The translations under genes and the position numbers were made by a program. From the sequence record MW650886.1: DNA of 64,000 nucleotides; one strand, given 5' to 3'. This document shows, piece by piece, positions 37,112 through 63,975 of the stretch; position 1 is the stretch's first letter; every line of letters starts with the position of its first letter. The DNA is from Escherichia phage vB_EcoM-ZQ1. The notes under the pieces were generated by a model. The model saw only the letters and a program-made list of their open reading frames with translations. It had not been told where the DNA came from and searched no databases.

Positions 37112-37136
37112 AAAGAGGCTCCGGCCTCTTTTTCAT
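37112..37136 (+). terminator. Intrinsic terminator
   Basis: Hairpin AGAGGC-TCCG-GCCTCT followed by TTTTTCATTT. Confidence 0.6.
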
Positions 37137-37200
37137 TTCCAGCATTTAGTGTATAATGGACCCGTTCCCCATGAGCGGAACCTAACTGAGGATACACCAA

Positions 37201-37701
37201 ATGAAATCCATGGTCAAACGTAAAGTTGAAATCTCCCTGACTGCCCATATTGAAATGGTCCAACAACTTATCCTGGATGCGTATGAAATCCAGAAAGATC
37301 GCCAATCGAGGGGAGGTGTGACGGACCCCACCTGTCCTGGAAACATACTGTACTATCGCATGCTGCGCCAGACTGGGCACACCGCCGCGCTGAAGAAGAT
37401 TCTGTCCTATGATTTCCAGACAGAGAACAACCTCAACATCATGGGCGTCTTCCATAGCGTTAGTGAACGCGATTCTTTCTTCCGCTCCCGAGCAGGCGCG
37501 GATGTATCATTGCCCGATGTAGACAAGAAACAGCACACGACAACCATCTCCCATTACATGGGCACGGATATCGATAAAGCAAACATCATCGTGTTCTCTG
37601 ATACGTTGCATGACCCCAAGCGCCTTGCATCTGCGCATGAAATGCTGCGGGAAGGTCGCAGCACCCTCACTAATTTGACTTTAGTAGTGTTTCTGGGCTA
37701 G
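37201..37701 (+). CDS. Hypothetical protein
   Basis: 166-aa ORF. Confidence 0.45.
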   Translation: MKSMVKRKVEISLTAHIEMVQQLILDAYEIQKDRQSRGGVTDPTCPGNILYYRMLRQTGHTAALKKILSYDFQTENNLNIMGVFHSVSERDSFFRSRAGADVSLPDVDKKQHTTTISHYMGTDIDKANIIVFSDTLHDPKRLASAHEMLREGRSTLTNLTLVVFLG

Positions 37702-37944: not shown

Positions 37945-37986
37945 TTTCACTACACACAGCAATACTTTGATTTGAGAAACTACATC

Positions 37987-38475
37987 ATGATGCTGTTAAT
38001 GAGCGTTCCACAGAACAAGATGACCCCTGCAACAGAGGGCAAGAATCACTTCAACATCTACAGCCGGAGCCAGACGGAACTCGGGCGCTTCCTCTCGCAT
38101 TTTACCCATCATCCAATGACTACCCATGAACATGGTGTGTTTAACTCCATGGAGGGGTACTGGTATTGGCTGAAGTATAGGGATGACAACCTGCGCCTGC
38201 TCGACGGTTATGAGGCCAAGCAATATGGACAGGGATTGGCGGCTTCCCGCGTCATTGTCCTGGACCCGTCTACCGAAGAATTCAAGCGCGATATCCTATT
38301 TGCAACTAGCATGAAACTCCAGACAATGCCTGAACGTCTGAAGATCAGATTGGCGTACAGTCGCCTACCCCTGATCCATGCATATGTTCAGAACGGGAAA
38401 TACAGTTTTCAAAACTCTATGGACTATATCATTGCCCACATTAATCGTCTCCGCATACAAGGAACTTTGAAATGA
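37987..38475 (+). CDS. Hypothetical protein
   Basis: Track start 37972 is a TTG; first ATG is at 37987. Confidence 0.4.
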   Translation: MMLLMSVPQNKMTPATEGKNHFNIYSRSQTELGRFLSHFTHHPMTTHEHGVFNSMEGYWYWLKYRDDNLRLLDGYEAKQYGQGLAASRVIVLDPSTEEFKRDILFATSMKLQTMPERLKIRLAYSRLPLIHAYVQNGKYSFQNSMDYIIAHINRLRIQGTLK

Positions 38476-39053
38476 AATTTCTACACACTATCGTCGACAC
38501 TTCTTATGACTGCACTGCTCATACCCCAGACCGTTCGCCTGTGTTTGTTCTGAACAAACTAGGTGAAGAGATCTGTGAACTGTCTGATGTGTTTCATGGC
38601 ATAGTATCTTCCGAGCCGTTGAATGGCGAAGTTGCTGATGTCATTATCTCTGCTATTGACCTTCTGTACGTCATGGATTATGACGACGTCCAATTGCGCG
38701 GCTCTCTGAACAAGGCCGAAATGATCGACTCTGTCATCAACCACATGGCGACAGTGAACGATATTTCTTCTAATCTGTTGGAAGAAGACTGGTTCCGTCT
38801 GATTGATCGTGATCCTCAAAAGCATCTGAATCTTATCCATCATTATCATGGCCGGATTATCCGATTGTGCAACCAGCCTTATCGCAGTCAAGACAGATTG
38901 GATCAACTCGTCAATGACCTAATCAAGCATGTTGCGCGCATGGGGTGTGGGGAAGGGGCGATACGTGGATCCTCTTTGATGGCCACTCGCATTAAAGTGG
39001 AGCACGCTATTGAACACAAGGTTGAAAAGTGGCGTACTGAATTTGGCTTATGA
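38472..39053 (+). CDS. MazG-like nucleotide pyrophosphohydrolase (putative)
   Basis: All-alpha NTP-PPase-like motifs LGEEICELSDVF and EVADVIISAIDLLYV. Confidence 0.4.
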   Translation: MKFLHTIVDTSYDCTAHTPDRSPVFVLNKLGEEICELSDVFHGIVSSEPLNGEVADVIISAIDLLYVMDYDDVQLRGSLNKAEMIDSVINHMATVNDISSNLLEEDWFRLIDRDPQKHLNLIHHYHGRIIRLCNQPYRSQDRLDQLVNDLIKHVARMGCGEGAIRGSSLMATRIKVEHAIEHKVEKWRTEFGL

Positions 39054-39319
39054 ATAACATACAACCTTGGGAACACCCGACTGTCGTAAAGACGGGTAAA
39101 TCCCGACAATGGCTCTTGGCTGGTGAATTCTTTGAATGGTGGTATAGTAACGGTGAAGACAAAGTGAAGAACCGTTATTGTTTAATGTTGAAAGAAACCG
39201 GGTTAAGCTCTGTGTGTTCTAAGGCCACAGCACAAACTTGTATATCTAAATTTCAGAAAGGTTGGATACCAAAAGAAGATTCCGCCTGGTTGAAATTTTA
39301 CGGAGATAATAATGGTTGA
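39050..39319 (+). CDS. Hypothetical protein
   Basis: 89-aa ORF. Confidence 0.4.
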   Translation: MNNIQPWEHPTVVKTGKSRQWLLAGEFFEWWYSNGEDKVKNRYCLMLKETGLSSVCSKATAQTCISKFQKGWIPKEDSAWLKFYGDNNG

Positions 39320-41210
39320 TGTAAACAGAAAATACAAAAAGCTCTCACACATCGAGCATATACTCCTTCGCCCAGAGCGCCATCTAGGGAGTATCCGTTC
39401 TTCTGTCGGGATGGCTTGGGTATATGATCTCAGCAAAGACAAAGTTGTGTTTAAAGACAATTTTGAATATAACCCCGCTCTTATCAAACAGTTTGATGAA
39501 ATCATCACCAACTGTGTTGACCACAGCAAGACCCCTGAGGGCAAATCCCTGACGGAAATCACCGTCACAGTTTCCCCGATGAACGGTCAAATCATCGTTG
39601 CTGACAACGGGGGTATCCCTGTGGTCAAGCATGAATCTGGTATGTGGTTGCCAGAAATGTTATTTTCAGAATTGTTTGCTGGATCGAACTTCAACGACGA
39701 AGACGAAGAGTACAACAACCAGAAGTCCGGTGGTCAGAATGGCGAAGGGGCGTCCCTCGTCAACGTGTTCTCCAAATGGTTCCGCGTCACGACTAATGAC
39801 GGCAAGAAGTCTTATACTCAGACGTTTGAAGACAACATGAGCAAGAAATCTAACCCAGTCATCAGCAACGTGAACAGTCCTGGCACATCCATCGCCTGGA
39901 TCCCTGACTATGCTCGTCTGGGCGTCAAAGGACTTGACCAGAACAACCTGCTGATGATCTATCGCCGCGCGTTTGAAGTGGCTGCGTGTAACCCGCGCCT
40001 GAAGATTGTTCTCAACGGGAAGCAAATCCGGATTGACCGCTTTGGCCATTTCGTTGATTACTTCCATGCTGGCTCGGCTGTTGACGAAACCGGGGATTGG
40101 TCTGTTGCTGTAGCCCCTTCATCCGGTACGTTCATGCACGCATCATACGTGAACTCTATTGCCACCCACATCGGTGGTCCTCACGTTGATTATGTTGCCG
40201 ACCAGATCGTGGCAGCGATTCGTCCCCAGCTGGTGAAGAAGTTCAAGACCGAGCTGAAGCCAGCAATGATCAAGAACCACATGTCCTTGTTCATCGCTGC
40301 CGACATCAACAACCCGCGCTTTGACAGCCAGACCAAGGAGCGCATGACCACTCCTGTCAGCCAGTTCGGTACGTCGTACAAGCCCAGCGATAAACTGATC
40401 CGCAAGGCGCTTGAGTTCGTTACGGCTGGTCTGAGCAAAGAACTGGCTTCCCTACGCAATGAGCAGGATGATGCTGAGTTTGAAAAGGCCAAGAAGGATA
40501 TCAGCAAGCGGGATTATCGTGAGATTGAGAAGTATTACCCGGCGACCGCCCGTGGTGACCGCAGCGGATGCTCCTTGCTGCTGACCGAGGGTGATAGTGC
40601 ATCCAACCCTATCCTGAACGCCCGTGACACCAAGAAGATCGGGTTGTTCCCGCTTCGTGGTAAGTTCATCAACTGCCTGAACGCCCCGCGCTCAAAGGTG
40701 ATGAACAATGAAGAGTTCAAGAACCTGTGTACGATCCACGGCGGCGCAGTGCCAGGCCAGCCCCTTGATATCACCCGTTACCCACAGACTGTTGTGGCTA
40801 CCGATGCGGACGATGACGGCATCCACATCCGTGGGTTGTTGATCACCCTGTATTGCACCTACTGGCCGGAGTACGTCCGTCAGGGCAGGCTGAAGCTCCT
40901 GCGCACCCCTTACATGCGTGTGTGGTGTGGTAAGGTGATGCATGAGTTCATGAACAACGCCGAGTATGAGGAGTTCCTGAAGACTCCCGATGCCAAGAAG
41001 ATCACGAAGAAGAAATATCTGAAAGGTCTGGGTGGTAACAGCACTGAAGACTTCAAACGTATTCTAAACAACCTGGATGCGTATACTACGACAGTCACGC
41101 TGGACGATGGCTACCAACAGTCACTGAAGAATGGCTTCGGTGATGAGGCCGCCGATTACCGCAAAACCTGGTTTAGCGATGTTTGTCTATTTGAGACTGA
41201 GGATGAATAA
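39312..41210 (+). CDS. DNA topoisomerase II large subunit (GyrB-like; T4 gp39/gp60 equivalent)
   Basis: GHKL ATPase region plus Toprim motifs LLLTEGDSASNP and DADDDGIHIRGLLITL. Confidence 0.8.
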   Translation: MVDVNRKYKKLSHIEHILLRPERHLGSIRSSVGMAWVYDLSKDKVVFKDNFEYNPALIKQFDEIITNCVDHSKTPEGKSLTEITVTVSPMNGQIIVADNGGIPVVKHESGMWLPEMLFSELFAGSNFNDEDEEYNNQKSGGQNGEGASLVNVFSKWFRVTTNDGKKSYTQTFEDNMSKKSNPVISNVNSPGTSIAWIPDYARLGVKGLDQNNLLMIYRRAFEVAACNPRLKIVLNGKQIRIDRFGHFVDYFHAGSAVDETGDWSVAVAPSSGTFMHASYVNSIATHIGGPHVDYVADQIVAAIRPQLVKKFKTELKPAMIKNHMSLFIAADINNPRFDSQTKERMTTPVSQFGTSYKPSDKLIRKALEFVTAGLSKELASLRNEQDDAEFEKAKKDISKRDYREIEKYYPATARGDRSGCSLLLTEGDSASNPILNARDTKKIGLFPLRGKFINCLNAPRSKVMNNEEFKNLCTIHGGAVPGQPLDITRYPQTVVATDADDDGIHIRGLLITLYCTYWPEYVRQGRLKLLRTPYMRVWCGKVMHEFMNNAEYEEFLKTPDAKKITKKKYLKGLGGNSTEDFKRILNNLDAYTTTVTLDDGYQQSLKNGFGDEAADYRKTWFSDVCLFETEDE

Positions 41211-41211
41211 T

Positions 41212-42543
41212 ATGGTTGCCAAGAGCATTACTGTAACGGACTTTGTCAACACTGACCATAAACAGTTTTCTGTGGTCAACAGCATCCGTCAAATCCCTCA
41301 GCTGATTGACAGTCTCAAGCCAAGCCAGCGCAAGATCCTTTTCGCTGCTCTTGAGTACAACAAGGAGGAGATTGTTGACCGCCTTGGTATGTTCGCCGCC
41401 GCTCGGACCAACTACAAGTCTGGTGGGGAGAACATGAGCGGCACTATCGTGAACATGGCCCAGGGGTTCCCAGGTACGAACAACATCCCGTACTTTGACC
41501 GCGATGGCCAGTTTGGTTCTATCATGGGGCGTGATGCTTCATCTGCCCGATACATATCCGTCGCTGTATCTGACGTTATCCGCAAGATCTTCCGCAAGGA
41601 GGATGAGGGTATCTTGGAATACAACTACCTTGGTGAAGAAAGGCTGGAGCCGAAGTTCTTTCTACCCATCCTGCCCATGTTCCTGGTGAATGGGATCAAT
41701 GGTATCGGCACCGGATATTCCACCGACACCCCGTGTCATTGCGTTAAGTCCGTGCTGAATGCCCTGAGAGCGCTTCTCCGTGGCGAAGACCCGAAAGACT
41801 TAAAACCGTACTGGAACGGCTTCAAAGGAGAGACAGGCTATACTGAGGAAGGAAGAGCATACAGTCGCGGCATCTTCCGTCGCGTCAATGCCACCACCCT
41901 GCATATCACCGAAGTCCCAGTGGGCTGGTTTGCCAAAACCTATGAGACCAAGGTGTTGCTGCCTCTGTACAAGGCAGGTATCCTCACCGAGTACGCCAAC
42001 GACACGACGGAAGATGGCTGGGATATCACGGTTGTGTTTAAGCGCGGCGAACTCTCTAAGCTGAGTGACGAGCAGGTTGAGCAGATGTTCAAACTGTATT
42101 CAGCTACCAAGCCTGTGTGGACAGCATGGGATGAAGACGGTGTTATTCATCGTTATTCTGGTTGGCGGGACATGTTGCTACCGTTCTTCAATTATCGCCT
42201 ATCACGGTACGAAGACCGTCGCCAGTATCTGTTGAAGGACATGGCAGACAGGATCCGCAAGCTGGGTGACCGGGCGGTGTTCATTGAATGGGCGACGCGT
42301 GTTGATCTCCGCCAAAAGATTGACGTGCTGAAGTCTCTGTTCATGCAGGACTACCCGGACTTTGGTGGTGATCTTGACGAGTTGTTCAAGATGCCTCTGT
42401 CGTCTATTACTCTGGACGCCCGTGAGCGCCTACTCAAGCAGATTGAGAACCTTGAAGCACAACATAAGGAATTAAGTAAGAAAGAGGACATCGATCTTTA
42501 CACTGAAGACCTTGATGACCTTGAAAAGGCTCTTGGCCTATAA
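41212..42543 (+). CDS. DNA topoisomerase II medium subunit (GyrA-like; T4 gp52 equivalent)
   Basis: Directly follows the large subunit; GyrA/ParC-like N-terminal breakage-reunion region; start placed at the ATG after the upstream stop. Confidence 0.7.
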   Translation: MVAKSITVTDFVNTDHKQFSVVNSIRQIPQLIDSLKPSQRKILFAALEYNKEEIVDRLGMFAAARTNYKSGGENMSGTIVNMAQGFPGTNNIPYFDRDGQFGSIMGRDASSARYISVAVSDVIRKIFRKEDEGILEYNYLGEERLEPKFFLPILPMFLVNGINGIGTGYSTDTPCHCVKSVLNALRALLRGEDPKDLKPYWNGFKGETGYTEEGRAYSRGIFRRVNATTLHITEVPVGWFAKTYETKVLLPLYKAGILTEYANDTTEDGWDITVVFKRGELSKLSDEQVEQMFKLYSATKPVWTAWDEDGVIHRYSGWRDMLLPFFNYRLSRYEDRRQYLLKDMADRIRKLGDRAVFIEWATRVDLRQKIDVLKSLFMQDYPDFGGDLDELFKMPLSSITLDARERLLKQIENLEAQHKELSKKEDIDLYTEDLDDLEKALGL

Positions 42544-47105: not shown

Positions 47106-47420
47106 ATGACCCCATTAAAAGAAATGTATGAGCGTCTGGCTGAACTACAGGCGAAGGAAAAGCGCTTCTCAGAAGAAGAGTCTGAAATCGCCGAGCTGAA
47201 CAACCTGATTGCCACTCGTGAGAAGTACCTGCATCGCTACATTAATCACCCGCCGCGCATGGTAGACCGCGTCAGCACTATCATGGACCTGGATGAAGTT
47301 ACTCCTGGCAAAGAAATCATTGTCAGGGAAGTCCACCAGATGGTCGCCATGGGTCAGATCTTTGGTCGTGCAGACCAAGACGACATGATCTTCCTCCTTG
47401 AAAAGAAACTGGTGATGTGA
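47106..47420 (+). CDS. Hypothetical protein
   Basis: 104 aa; SD GAGGAA. Confidence 0.45.
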   Translation: MTPLKEMYERLAELQAKEKRFSEEESEIAELNNLIATREKYLHRYINHPPRMVDRVSTIMDLDEVTPGKEIIVREVHQMVAMGQIFGRADQDDMIFLLEKKLVM

Positions 47421-47926
47421 TGGCTATCAAACCCCGTATGTTATTTGCGCATATGCGCTCGGCTCATGCATACGCTCTGTCCAGCTATGCCCAGCGCCTG
47501 AAGGTCGGCTGTGTTATCGTTGACCCGCGTGTTGACCAGCCCCTGTCTATCGGTTGGAACGGGACTGCTCCTGGCGCTCCTAATGTCTGTGAGAAGGAAG
47601 TAGACGGTCAACTGGTATCGGTGGGTGTTATCCACGCCGAGGAGAATGCTCTGAGCAAACTCCCCCAGCACACTGAAGACTGTTGTGGCCTGGTGATGTT
47701 TGTCACTCATAGTCCATGCCCAGAGTGCACCCGTCGTATTATCGGCAGTGGCAAGATCGCTAAAGTATTCTATGACCGACCATATCGTATCATAGACGGC
47801 ATTATTGAAATGCTGGCTGCTGGGATTGAAGTGTATCGCATGGTCGATCAGATTGTTGTAGTCCAGCATTCTGTGAAGAACGGCGAACTGGTATCCACCC
47901 CTGTTTTAGTGAACCCTGACAAATAA
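47417..47926 (+). CDS. dCMP (deoxycytidylate) deaminase
   Basis: Zinc-binding deaminase motifs HAEENAL and PCPECTRRI. Confidence 0.7.
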   Translation: MMAIKPRMLFAHMRSAHAYALSSYAQRLKVGCVIVDPRVDQPLSIGWNGTAPGAPNVCEKEVDGQLVSVGVIHAEENALSKLPQHTEDCCGLVMFVTHSPCPECTRRIIGSGKIAKVFYDRPYRIIDGIIEMLAAGIEVYRMVDQIVVVQHSVKNGELVSTPVLVNPDK

Positions 47927-62582: not shown

Positions 62583-62912
62583 CTACCCCACCAAAAATTT
62601 ATTATATTCCTGAGCATTACGCTGCATGAGGTCTACAAGGATATCCCCTGACACCTCAGTGAACAAGTCATTTTCTTTCAAATTCACAAACATCAGACGC
62701 AATGGTTTCTTCAATATATCAGTCACGAAAGACAGGCGGGGTTCGCCGTCCACTTCGTTGATGGCCACCTTGCCGAACCTGAATTGAACACCACGGAATT
62801 TGCCAGAAGTGATCTTGATGATCGCCAGCTGATCAGCACCAGGGTCGATGATTGTGTAGTTATTGGGGGAGTCTCCTCCCCCTCCACTGTTATTCGCTTG
62901 TGTTAATAACAT
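62583..62912 (-). CDS. Hypothetical protein (in the position of T4 gene 40 between uvsX and the helicase gene)
   Basis: 109 aa from the internal ATG; track ORF extends into uvsX. Confidence 0.35.
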   Translation of the reverse strand: MLLTQANNSGGGGDSPNNYTIIDPGADQLAIIKITSGKFRGVQFRFGKVAINEVDGEPRLSFVTDILKKPLRLMFVNLKENDLFTEVSGDILVDLMQRNAQEYNKFLVG

Positions 62913-63975
62913 GGTCCATTTGCTCCAGCATGTTAGCAGGCATAACAGTACCGTTAGAAACACCGAACATTTTCTTCACGTCATCGGCGAAGTTGACATT
63001 CTCCAGCAGCGGATACCAGAAATCATCATCCATCTGACGCTTCTGATATTTCTTTTCCTTCTCAGGATCGAAACCACCCTTGGTTGTACGCACATACCAA
63101 CCGGAAGACGGCATATCAACATAACCCAGAGCACGAGCGATCTCAAGCAGGCCGCTCCAGCGATCAATACCGCCGTTGTACAGTACCGTCACAGGGAGCT
63201 TGGCTTTCTCTTTGACATGGCGACCTTTCATGATGCTTATGTTGAAGTTCCAGCCCAGCAGATCTTTGTCTTCCTTCACCTGAGAACGGGTGATAAACCA
63301 GATCAAGTTGGAGGATAAGAAGCCCTGCTTGCCGCCTTTGATGTTAGGCTCGGCATATTGGTTGCCGATCTCATCGTAATAGGAGTTGATCCAAACACAC
63401 ACGAGATTTTTGCTATTGATTTCAGGAGTCATGACACGCCAGAAGCTGTTGAGGGCACGGGCGCGGGTCATGTCTTGAGTGTCGTTCCCTTTGATCGCAT
63501 CTTCAACTTCCTTGGTGGAGGGAAGTTGGCTGATAGAGTCGATGAAGATTATAACATGGTCGCCTTTCTTGACTTCCTGTAGGATCTGCAGCAAGCGGAT
63601 CTTGGTCTGTTCAACGTTGTCGATCGGTACGTACAGGACGCGGTCCATGTCAATGCCCATAGAGGTCCAGTAATCAGCGTTGGCACCCTTTTCCGAGTCA
63701 GCAAATACACAGATAGCATCAGGGAACTTGTCCATATAAGCCTTGACATCGACCAGGCCGAACATCGTTTTGAAGGTACGGGAATCACCCACCATCATCT
63801 TGATACCGGAGATCAGGCCGCCGTCAATACGCCCAGACCATGCGATATCGATCAGGGGAATACCAGTAGAACAGATGATAGACGGTTCCAGAGCGTCGGA
63901 TTTGGACAGCACTGAAGCCTGGTCATCGTGTTTCTTAGCAACCTTCAGCATGCGATCCATTAATGAACTGGCCAT
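62890..63975 (-). CDS. uvsX: UvsX recombinase (RecA-like)
   Basis: RecA-fold P-loop region MMVGDSRTFKTMFGL and conserved blocks HVIIFIDSISQL, DMTRARALNSFWRVMTP, GGIDRWSGLLEIARALGYV matching T4 UvsX. Confidence 0.8.
   Translation of the reverse strand: MASSLMDRMLKVAKKHDDQASVLSKSDALEPSIICSTGIPLIDIAWSGRIDGGLISGIKMMVGDSRTFKTMFGLVDVKAYMDKFPDAICVFADSEKGANADYWTSMGIDMDRVLYVPIDNVEQTKIRLLQILQEVKKGDHVIIFIDSISQLPSTKEVEDAIKGNDTQDMTRARALNSFWRVMTPEINSKNLVCVWINSYYDEIGNQYAEPNIKGGKQGFLSSNLIWFITRSQVKEDKDLLGWNFNISIMKGRHVKEKAKLPVTVLYNGGIDRWSGLLEIARALGYVDMPSSGWYVRTTKGGFDPEKEKKYQKRQMDDDFWYPLLENVNFADDVKKMFGVSNGTVMPANMLEQMDHVINTSE

Follow-up and report, generated by a model that had tools for sequence, protein, structure and literature searches.

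Escherichia phage vB_EcoM-ZQ1 (sequence record MW650886.1) was analysed over a stretch of 64,000 nucleotides, referred to below as the window, which carries on its + strand, upstream of the topoisomerase II genes, a gene coding for a MazG-like protein of 193 amino acids (aa) (positions 38472..39053). As judged from the sequence and the predicted fold, this gene very probably encodes a MazG-type enzyme, which converts a nucleoside triphosphate to the monophosphate and pyrophosphate. The reading favoured here, with a probability of about 0.75, is that of a divalent-metal-dependent nucleoside or deoxynucleoside triphosphate (NTP/dNTP) pyrophosphohydrolase of the MazG/MazZ-like branch of the all-alpha NTP pyrophosphatases, folded as an intramolecular pseudo-dimer. 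Profile comparisons identify the protein as a putative internal duplication of two tandem MazG-like helical units, a feature new relative to its annotation. It is an uncharacterised, divergent, ordinary member of a known enzyme superfamily, and its MazG-like identity is already present in public annotation, as a PHROG-based label in relatives, which the analysis leaves unchanged. What is added beyond the existing label is the fused, asymmetric two-repeat architecture, a locus common with single-domain relatives of T4-like phages, and a testable substrate prediction.

Two fused MazG-like repeats

The protein comprises an N-terminal MazG-like repeat (residues 1-97, 38472..38762, + strand), the predicted catalytic half, and a degenerate C-terminal one (residues 98-193, 38763..39050, + strand), in which the acidic ligands are lost. 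Both were recognised by hhalign comparison with single-domain relatives, and the former also with MazZ. The single-domain relatives, called short forms here, are proteins of 96-118 aa found among the distant matches of a profile search; some of them exceed the Pfam MazG threshold, and the distant relatives P0065 and P0066 lie above it. The N-half matches the short forms with a probability of 99.7% (E=2.6e-26) and the C-half with 98.2% (E=3.3e-14, 81 columns). The C-half deprived of its last helix (98-172) gives 95.3% (E=2e-8), and this helix alone (173-193) aligns to the short-form C-terminus with a probability of 95.0%, while the reversed-sequence controls stay below 1%.

The short forms contain, in this order, an EExGE helix, an L-N-Q-P-x-R loop, an E-x-A-D-x-x-I-x-x-x-D helix, and a C-terminal K-x-x-K-W helix. 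In the three-way register of the two halves and the short forms, the N-half keeps R21, K29, E32, E33, E36, E48, E53, D56, and D63, each in 34 of the 34 full-length homologs; its NQPxR loop and KxxKW helix are gone. Retained in the C-half are G127, N134, Q135, P136, R138, D141, K183, K186, and W187, with H124, Y125, R128, L146, K/R149, and R/K156 at the acidic positions. Invariant columns number 33 in the N-half versus 18 in the C-half. The fusion seems to be independent of the duplication that lies behind the dimeric dUTPases, since both halves match the phage short forms, to which they are far closer, and the dUTPase_2 family scores below 1%. A preliminary description of the window, based on its letters alone, recognised the enzyme class and missed the fused pair with its one catalytic half.

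Family assignment and predicted fold

The 193-aa protein is matched by PHROG 1247, "MazG-like pyrophosphatase", at E=2e-34. A search with profile hidden Markov models, proposed in the preliminary description as a check, thus returned the expected family from PHROG and no direct match from Pfam or NCBIfam. Structure prediction, the other ground on which the MazG/HisE-like fold was to stand or fall, gave an all-alpha AlphaFold model with nine helices and no strands, built on 28 orthologs, with a predicted local distance difference test (pLDDT) value of 92 and a predicted template modelling (pTM) score of 0.91. The outcome named as a refutation, absence of such a fold, was thus not seen. The best structural matches of the model are dimeric dUTPases, 152 residues aligning to 1W2Y; the top Foldseek match is 5MYD, the dimeric dUTPase of a staphylococcal phage (probability 0.90, E-values weak). 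After the orthologs, the neighbours in BFVD are phage NTP-pyrophosphohydrolase and dUTPase-like proteins, including the putative dUTPase of PhiW-14. The short-form profile run against the PDB retrieved MazG-type chains only, namely YpjD 2GTA (5e-4), 5IE9 (6e-4), 1VMG (0.016), iMazG 2Q73 (0.019), and MazZ (0.025).

The acidic motif of the superfamily, ExxE...ExxD, is represented by E33/E36/E53/D56, together with E32, with a spacing of x16 versus x15 in 1VMG. The metal ligands are E35/E38/E54/D57 in 1VMG and E46/E49/E74/D77 in 1W2Y (PMC2954211). Of the stretches pointed out earlier as carrying EExxE/D-type motifs, LGEEICEL corresponds to residues 30-37 (38559-38582) and EVADVIISAIDLL to residues 53-65 (38628-38666). 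The strict pattern EExx[E/D]-x12-28-ExxD occurs once, at 38565, in the six-frame translation of the whole window (377 open stretches of 60 aa or more, ~50,000 residues), and it arises in 173 of 20,000 composition-preserving shuffles of the protein (0.9%). The motifs are therefore present as described, unique in the window in their strict form and built of acidic residues that are invariant among the full-length homologs. The enzyme class assigned from the letters likewise holds, in view of the PHROG match, the confident all-alpha model, the invariant metal-ligand motif, and the hhalign relationship of the N-half to MazZ (probability 96%).

Conserved residues and the proposed active site

The first metal-binding motif, E32-E33-x-x-E36, lies in helix 2 (38565..38579, + strand) and corresponds to E34/E35/E38 of MazZ. 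The second, E48-P-L-N-G-E53-V-A-D56-V-I-I59-S-A-I-D63, lies in helix 3 (38613..38660, + strand) and also holds the putative base contacts. E32, E33, E36, E53, D56, and D63 are invariant in the full-length homologs, down to ~25% identity, and their counterparts are kept in 14-15 of the 15 single-domain relatives. E48 is invariant as well and I59 is found in 33/34, while D63 is present in 15/15 short forms. That the full metal-ligand set stays invariant in the homologs compared, 34 long and 15 short, suggests that catalysis is under selection.

The correspondence with MazZ concerns the N-half (hhalign probability 95.9%, E=5e-9) and the short forms (96%), the value for the C-half being 1.6%. In the hhalign and phmmer alignments the MazZ ion ligands E34/E35/E38/E50/D53 fall on E32/E33/E36/E53/D56; at further aligned positions K31 equals K29, D47 equals E48, I56 equals I59, and D60 equals D63. 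In the MazZ crystal the ion ligands E34/E35/E38/E50/D53 (E34/E35/E38 for ions A and C) come from one chain, as do K31, I56, L57, and D60, which contact the base. D60 lies 3.0 A from guanine N2 and, together with I56, contacts the guanine 2-amino group; all MazZ-1 proteins keep both residues. The pocket is closed by K76, N80, and W85 from the other chain of the tight dimer, whose R83 is placed at the beta-phosphate (all PMC8342488).

In the C-half, the segment H124-Y-H-G127-R128-x-x-R131-x-x-N134-Q-P-x-R138 (38841..38885, + strand) places H124, Y125, and R128 at the E-E-x-x-E positions, followed by the retained NQPxR loop, in which N134, Q135, and R138 are found in 34/34 and P136, like the preceding G127, in 33/34 homologs. 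The C-terminal basic and aromatic helix K183-x-x-K186-W187-R188-x-K190-F-G192 (39018..39047, + strand) is proposed to close the pocket and bind phosphates. All long forms have K183, K186, and W187, and in the short forms the outer K and the W are found in 15/15 and the middle K in 14/15. The proposal likens the K183...K190 helix, by eye, to the K76/N80/R83/W85 set from the second chain of MazZ.

By analogy with the MazZ crystal, the two halves would pack as the MazG dimer does, but with a single composite active site in place of two. In it, the N-half would bind two to three Mg2+ or Mn2+ ions and the base, basic and aromatic residues of the C-half would hold the beta- and gamma-phosphates, and an NTP or dNTP would be split into a nucleoside or deoxynucleoside monophosphate and pyrophosphate. 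The four-helix active-site bundle of MazG (1VMG) is formed by dimerisation, and that of the Campylobacter jejuni dUTPase is contained in one chain after an ancestral duplication (PMC2954211). A pseudo-dimer with a composite site would account for the model matching single-chain dimeric dUTPases best.

The leading guess as to the substrate, put forward tentatively and from aligned positions, is a guanine nucleotide, that is dGTP, GTP, or a damaged derivative such as 8-oxo-dGTP. It is suggested by the invariant D63 and by I59, which match the contacts of MazZ with the guanine 2-amino group, and by the fact that no other aligned solved MazG-type protein has an Asp at the position of D63 (C, S, and A in YpjD, 1VMG, and iMazG, respectively). 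The cyanophage S-PM2 MazG is a dNTP pyrophosphohydrolase preferring dGTP and dCTP (PMC6850273).

Several observations weigh against the pseudo-dimeric pyrophosphohydrolase or against parts of it. No Pfam family matched the 193-aa protein at E<=1 (PF03819, PF01503, and PF08761 included) and no NCBIfam model at E<=10, so that its membership of the family rests on PHROG, transitive profile links, and the fold. Sequence and profile searches of the PDB with the full-length protein brought up MazZ at E ~0.1-0.2, which is not significant, and the matches at E ~0.1 stood among spurious ones, for instance farnesyltransferase and designed helical proteins. Aligned directly to each other, the N-half and the C-half give a non-significant probability of 0.6%, so the duplication is deduced transitively, through the short forms. 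The MazZ analogy does not explain the conservation of the NQPxR loop on the degenerate half. In the by-eye alignment, which covers a region not aligned to MazZ by hhalign, W187 would stand where MazZ has N80, and it seems to take the place of the Asn by which many dNTP-specific members prefer deoxyribose (N179 of 1W2Y, N125 of RS21-C6). As to guanine, the argument, tentative as it is, draws on two aligned residues, and N20, the O6 contact of MazZ, is not conserved, falling on the variable position T18. Finally, a literature search found no biochemical, transcriptomic, or proteomic statement on the gene.

Gene organisation and genomic context

The open reading frame (ORF) begins with ATG at 38472 and ends with the stop codon TGA at 39051-39053, exactly as listed in the preliminary description, and is preceded by the Shine-Dalgarno-like AAGGA (38459..38463, + strand), 8 nt 5' of the start. 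Both neighbouring genes overlap it by a 4-bp ATGA (38472-38475 and 39050-39053), an arrangement typical of translational coupling, and the gene is translationally coupled to its neighbours. The upstream gene (37972..38475, + strand; 167 aa, PHROG 652, function unknown) ends within the first overlap, and a gene of similar size lies directly upstream in the loci of distant homologs too. The second overlap contains the start of a 5'-truncated remnant of an HNH homing endonuclease (39050..39319, + strand; 89 aa, PHROG 25551), 98% identical to residues 188-276 of the 276-aa endonuclease of PQ306799, a genome 98% identical to that of vB_EcoM-ZQ1. In comparison with PQ306799, ~560 bp are missing in the endonuclease slot and the ATGA overlap onto the stop codon of the MazG-like gene is retained. 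In some relatives coverage of the query drops to 94-95%, suggesting that phages differ in what they carry between the MazG-like and topoisomerase II genes. The placement of the gene upstream of the topoisomerase genes, as originally described, is thus correct, with the endonuclease remnant in between.

Topoisomerase II is encoded by a gene for the large subunit of the fused gp39/gp60 type (39312..41210, + strand; Pfam DNA_gyraseB, Toprim, TOPRIM_C, and HATPase_c) and one for the gp52-like medium subunit (41212..42543, + strand; Pfam DNA_topoisoIV, E=1e-65), the start of the latter being that annotated in PQ306799. The longest ORF of the medium subunit starts at 41131, overlapping the large-subunit gene by 80 nt. 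The MazG-like gene is probably co-transcribed with both. Promoter- and terminator-like sites in the sequence occur at the frequencies expected from shuffling (10 vs 8.7 and 9 vs 7.5, respectively), and the operon structure is therefore based on the ATGA overlaps and gene order. The best sigma-70-like match of the region, TTTTCA-16-TATAAT (37130-37157, 10/12), precedes a gene for a 166-aa protein (37201..37701, + strand; PHROG 4164 "histone family DNA-binding", E=4e-76, no Pfam match). This site may be the start of a transcription unit including the MazG-like and topoisomerase genes. Because of the translational coupling and the probable co-transcription with topoisomerase II genes, the enzyme would act during DNA replication and there trim or clean the nucleotide pool.

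The region shares 97-98.5% identity with Ackermannviridae phages of the genus Agtrevirus, among them Salmonella phage vB_CECAV_050 and Escherichia phages A221, PC3, and RPN242. The MazG-like protein was found in 278 phage records, nearly all of the ViI/Limestone type, with 50-98% identity, and one more match has 26%; 1.8 billion representative proteins, searched exhaustively with the profile, yielded only 34 relatives. All the distant full-length relatives, including that of Serratia phage phiMAM1, are encoded in the same slot (rIIA - rIIB - ... - MazG-like gene - topoisomerase II large and medium subunits), and the gene is therefore a conserved core gene of the ViI/Limestone-type lineage. In the records of relatives its product is labelled "MazG-like pyrophosphatase" in several cases and "hypothetical" or "viral tegument-like protein" in others. 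The last label was rejected, as a role in the tegument or virion finds no support in any of the family libraries.

The short forms occur in several hundred genomes of T4-like and rV5-like phages. On 3/3 long T4-like metagenomic contigs examined, they (107-109 aa; L010:8001-8324, L011:8001-8327, and L012:8001-8330) are encoded directly upstream of the large subunit of topoisomerase II, so that the linkage of the two genes is conserved across two phage families. One of these contigs carries a gp56-like gene, and another a QueC/QueF 7-deazaguanine cluster and a trimeric dUTPase. The cluster (L011:3368-7447), located 1-5 kb upstream of the short form, has the order PTPS/QueD-like - QueF - acetyltransferase - QueC - radical-SAM-like; the 7-deazaguanine pathway starts from GTP. 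A weak QueC-like gene (L008:14248-14925) is also found in Serratia phage phiMAM1, ~9 kb downstream of the full-length homolog. Given this spread of the short forms, the function is probably a general one in the replication of large myoviruses and not specific to 5-hydroxymethyl-deoxyuridine (5-hmdU).

The hydroxymethyl-deoxyuridine pathway and alternative functions

In PQ306799 three genes are annotated as all-alpha NTP-pyrophosphatases. Besides the MazG-like gene, these comprise a gp56-like one in an operon (PQ306799 33945-36767; L004:15948-18767) with the order 5-hmdU DNA kinase (PF18748) - thymidylate-synthase homolog - dNMP kinase - dUTPase_2 - phage ACT-like protein; the 5-hmdU DNA kinase gene is annotated as "hypothetical" or "thymidylate kinase" in relatives. 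The gp56-like paralog belongs to dUTPase_2 (PF08761, E=6e-9) and, like gp56, to PHROG 173, has the motif E42xxE45...E71xxD74, and keeps the near-invariant Q14...N18 of the uracil-recognition helix. The third gene, coding for a 290-aa "MazG-like pyrophosphatase" (PQ306799 85937-86809; L005:17940-18809; PHROG 2144, no Pfam match), adjoins regA-like and clamp-loader genes, and single-sequence hhalign detected no relationship between its product and the MazG-like family. The window ends at a UvsX-like gene (62893..63975, - strand), and by homology the 5-hmdU operon starts just past its right end. The presence of this operon and of the three-pyrophosphatase set in vB_EcoM-ZQ1 is thus inferred from relatives. 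A gene of the dCMP/cytidine deaminase family (47417..47926, + strand; PF00383, E=9e-16), a "hypothetical protein" in a close relative, lies within the window and would supply dUMP for the hydroxymethylase.

Phage ViI first makes DNA in which 5-hmdU fully replaces T, by a pre-replicative pathway resembling that of the hydroxymethyluracil phages, which encode a dTTPase (PMC8989533). The MazG-like protein could accordingly be pictured as the thymine-excluding dTTP/dUTP pyrophosphatase of this pathway, permitting the incorporation of 5-hmdUTP much as the T4 gp56 dCTPase acts in its own system. The structural matches to dimeric dUTPases, the position of the putative dUTPase of the 5-hmdU-type phage PhiW-14 among the BFVD neighbours, and the dCMP deaminase, which would feed dUMP, all suit such a role. 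We nevertheless consider it improbable, because a true gene of the dUTPase_2/T4-gp56 family sits inside the 5-hmdU operon of close relatives (97-98% identical DNA), the MazG-like protein has no sequence relation to that family and lacks the Q/N/N uracil triad of 1W2Y, and in T4-like phages with gp56-type or 7-deazaguanine systems in place of 5-hmdU the same slot holds its single-domain homologs. At the sequence level, helix 1 has no conserved Gln or Asn to set against Q14/N18/N22 of 1W2Y, its invariants being F3, T10, S11, P19, and R21, with Y12 nearly so. Homology to the T4 gp56 dCTPase was rejected (hhalign probability 0.4%, another PHROG and Pfam family), and the value against the dUTPase_2 alignment was 0.7%. 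With a dedicated dUTPase_2 paralog in the operon of relatives and short forms in phages with other modification systems, the specific link of the MazG-like gene to base modification, raised in the preliminary description, is weakened, and the dTTPase/dUTPase of the 5-hmdU pathway is more plausibly encoded by the gp56-like gene. Still less probable is a version in which the MazG-like protein, and not the gp56-like paralog, controls which pyrimidine enters nascent DNA, being specific for dTTP or discriminating dTTP from 5-hmdUTP. If true, it would be the "dTTPase" of the hydroxymethyl-dU phages of Gram-negative bacteria, and the fused asymmetric architecture an adaptation for distinguishing the 5-methyl from the 5-hydroxymethyl group.

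Two further functions appear very unlikely. One is hydrolysis of the alarmones (p)ppGpp, by which an infected cell would be kept in a "fed" state; it was classically proposed for the MazG of E. coli and cyanophages (PMC6850273), and (p)ppGpp, as guanine nucleotides, would fit a guanine-specific pocket. Yet the S-PM2 enzyme, the sole phage MazG tested on alarmones, neither binds nor hydrolyses (p)ppGpp (PMC6850273), nothing in the sequence or context of the present gene points to them, and the nearly complete burial of the nucleotide in MazZ would leave little room for a 3'-diphosphate. An equally remote reading dispenses with catalysis altogether and sees in the helical protein a structural or regulatory factor, or one that signals in the manner of the Stl-binding dimeric dUTPases of staphylococcal phages. 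One half is indeed catalytically degenerate, the top fold match, 5MYD, comes from a study of dUTPases in signalling, and some GenBank records bear the tegument label; against this stand the invariance of the full metal-ligand set across long and short homologs and the location of the gene among replication genes. The metal-dependent pyrophosphohydrolase with a composite site thus stays the preferred reading.

If this reading is right, the protein represents an apparent second, seemingly independent instance of a MazG-type dimer turned into one chain through duplication, fusion, and complementary loss, the route proposed for the dimeric dUTPases. The unfused, ancestor-like form at the same locus in T4-like phages makes a natural pair with it for studying the fusion transition. 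Relatives and, by extension, vB_EcoM-ZQ1 have three annotated all-alpha nucleotide pyrophosphatase genes alongside the hydroxymethyl-dU pathway. The Asp common with MazZ yields a concrete, falsifiable prediction of a guanine-nucleotide substrate for a gene family of several hundred large phages.

Comparison with known systems

Among relatives with known biochemistry and structure, the (d)GTP-specific MazZ of cyanophage S-2L (PDB 7ODY) is the nearest in sequence. It has in common with the N-half a P-D-R motif, the Lys (K31=K29), the five metal ligands, and the pair I56/D60 = I59/D63, and the Lys/Asn/Arg/Trp set by which its second chain completes the pocket finds a parallel in the Lys/Trp/Arg helix of the C-half. 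MazZ differs in that its 105 aa form one domain, extended by two C-terminal beta-strands, and that it assembles into a homotetramer with symmetric sites, whereas the protein described here is a 193-aa fused pair with one degenerate half. The gene contexts differ as well. mazZ lies between purZ and datZ and feeds 2-aminoadenine synthesis, while the neighbours here are the PHROG 652 gene, the HNH remnant, and topoisomerase II, and no PurZ or DatZ is annotated in PQ306799.

The dimeric dUTPases (1W2Y and 5MYD; family dUTPase_2, including T4 gp56) resemble the MazG-like protein in having the active-site bundle within one chain (PMC2954211) and in the ExxE...ExxD metal ligands. They differ from it in sequence, hhalign with dUTPase_2 and gp56 giving less than 1% and PF08761 no match, and in the Gln/Asn/Asn of helix 1, which it lacks.

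Two tandem MazG domains with unequal catalytic contributions are also found in one polypeptide in MazG of the E. coli type, as in the MazG-like protein. Both domains of E. coli MazG are detectable with the Pfam MazG model and each has acidic motifs. In contrast, neither half of the protein of vB_EcoM-ZQ1 is detected by Pfam, and the second half is devoid of all the acidic ligands.

The MazG of cyanophage S-PM2 is likewise a phage MazG-type enzyme in a T4-like replication background, but it is a canonical Pfam MazG of a different proposed origin, and the rationale proposed for it is the recycling of nucleotides of a GC-rich host for an AT-rich phage. This rationale was rejected here as a poor fit, the G+C content of the window being ~49%. 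Such a value is close to that of enterobacterial hosts.

Much closer than the dimeric dUTPases are the PHROG 1247 short forms of T4-like and rV5-like phages, which have the same motifs (EExGE, the NQPxR loop, ExxAD...D, and KxxKW) and, among cellular MazG-type proteins, are related to YpjD of Bacillus subtilis (2GTA), the Sulfolobus solfataricus protein 1VMG, and the integron iMazG (2Q73). Being single-domain, they must dimerise to form two symmetric sites, as established for MazG and presumed for the short forms themselves. They are unfused, whereas in the Ackermannviridae protein two copies are fused and complementary halves are kept.

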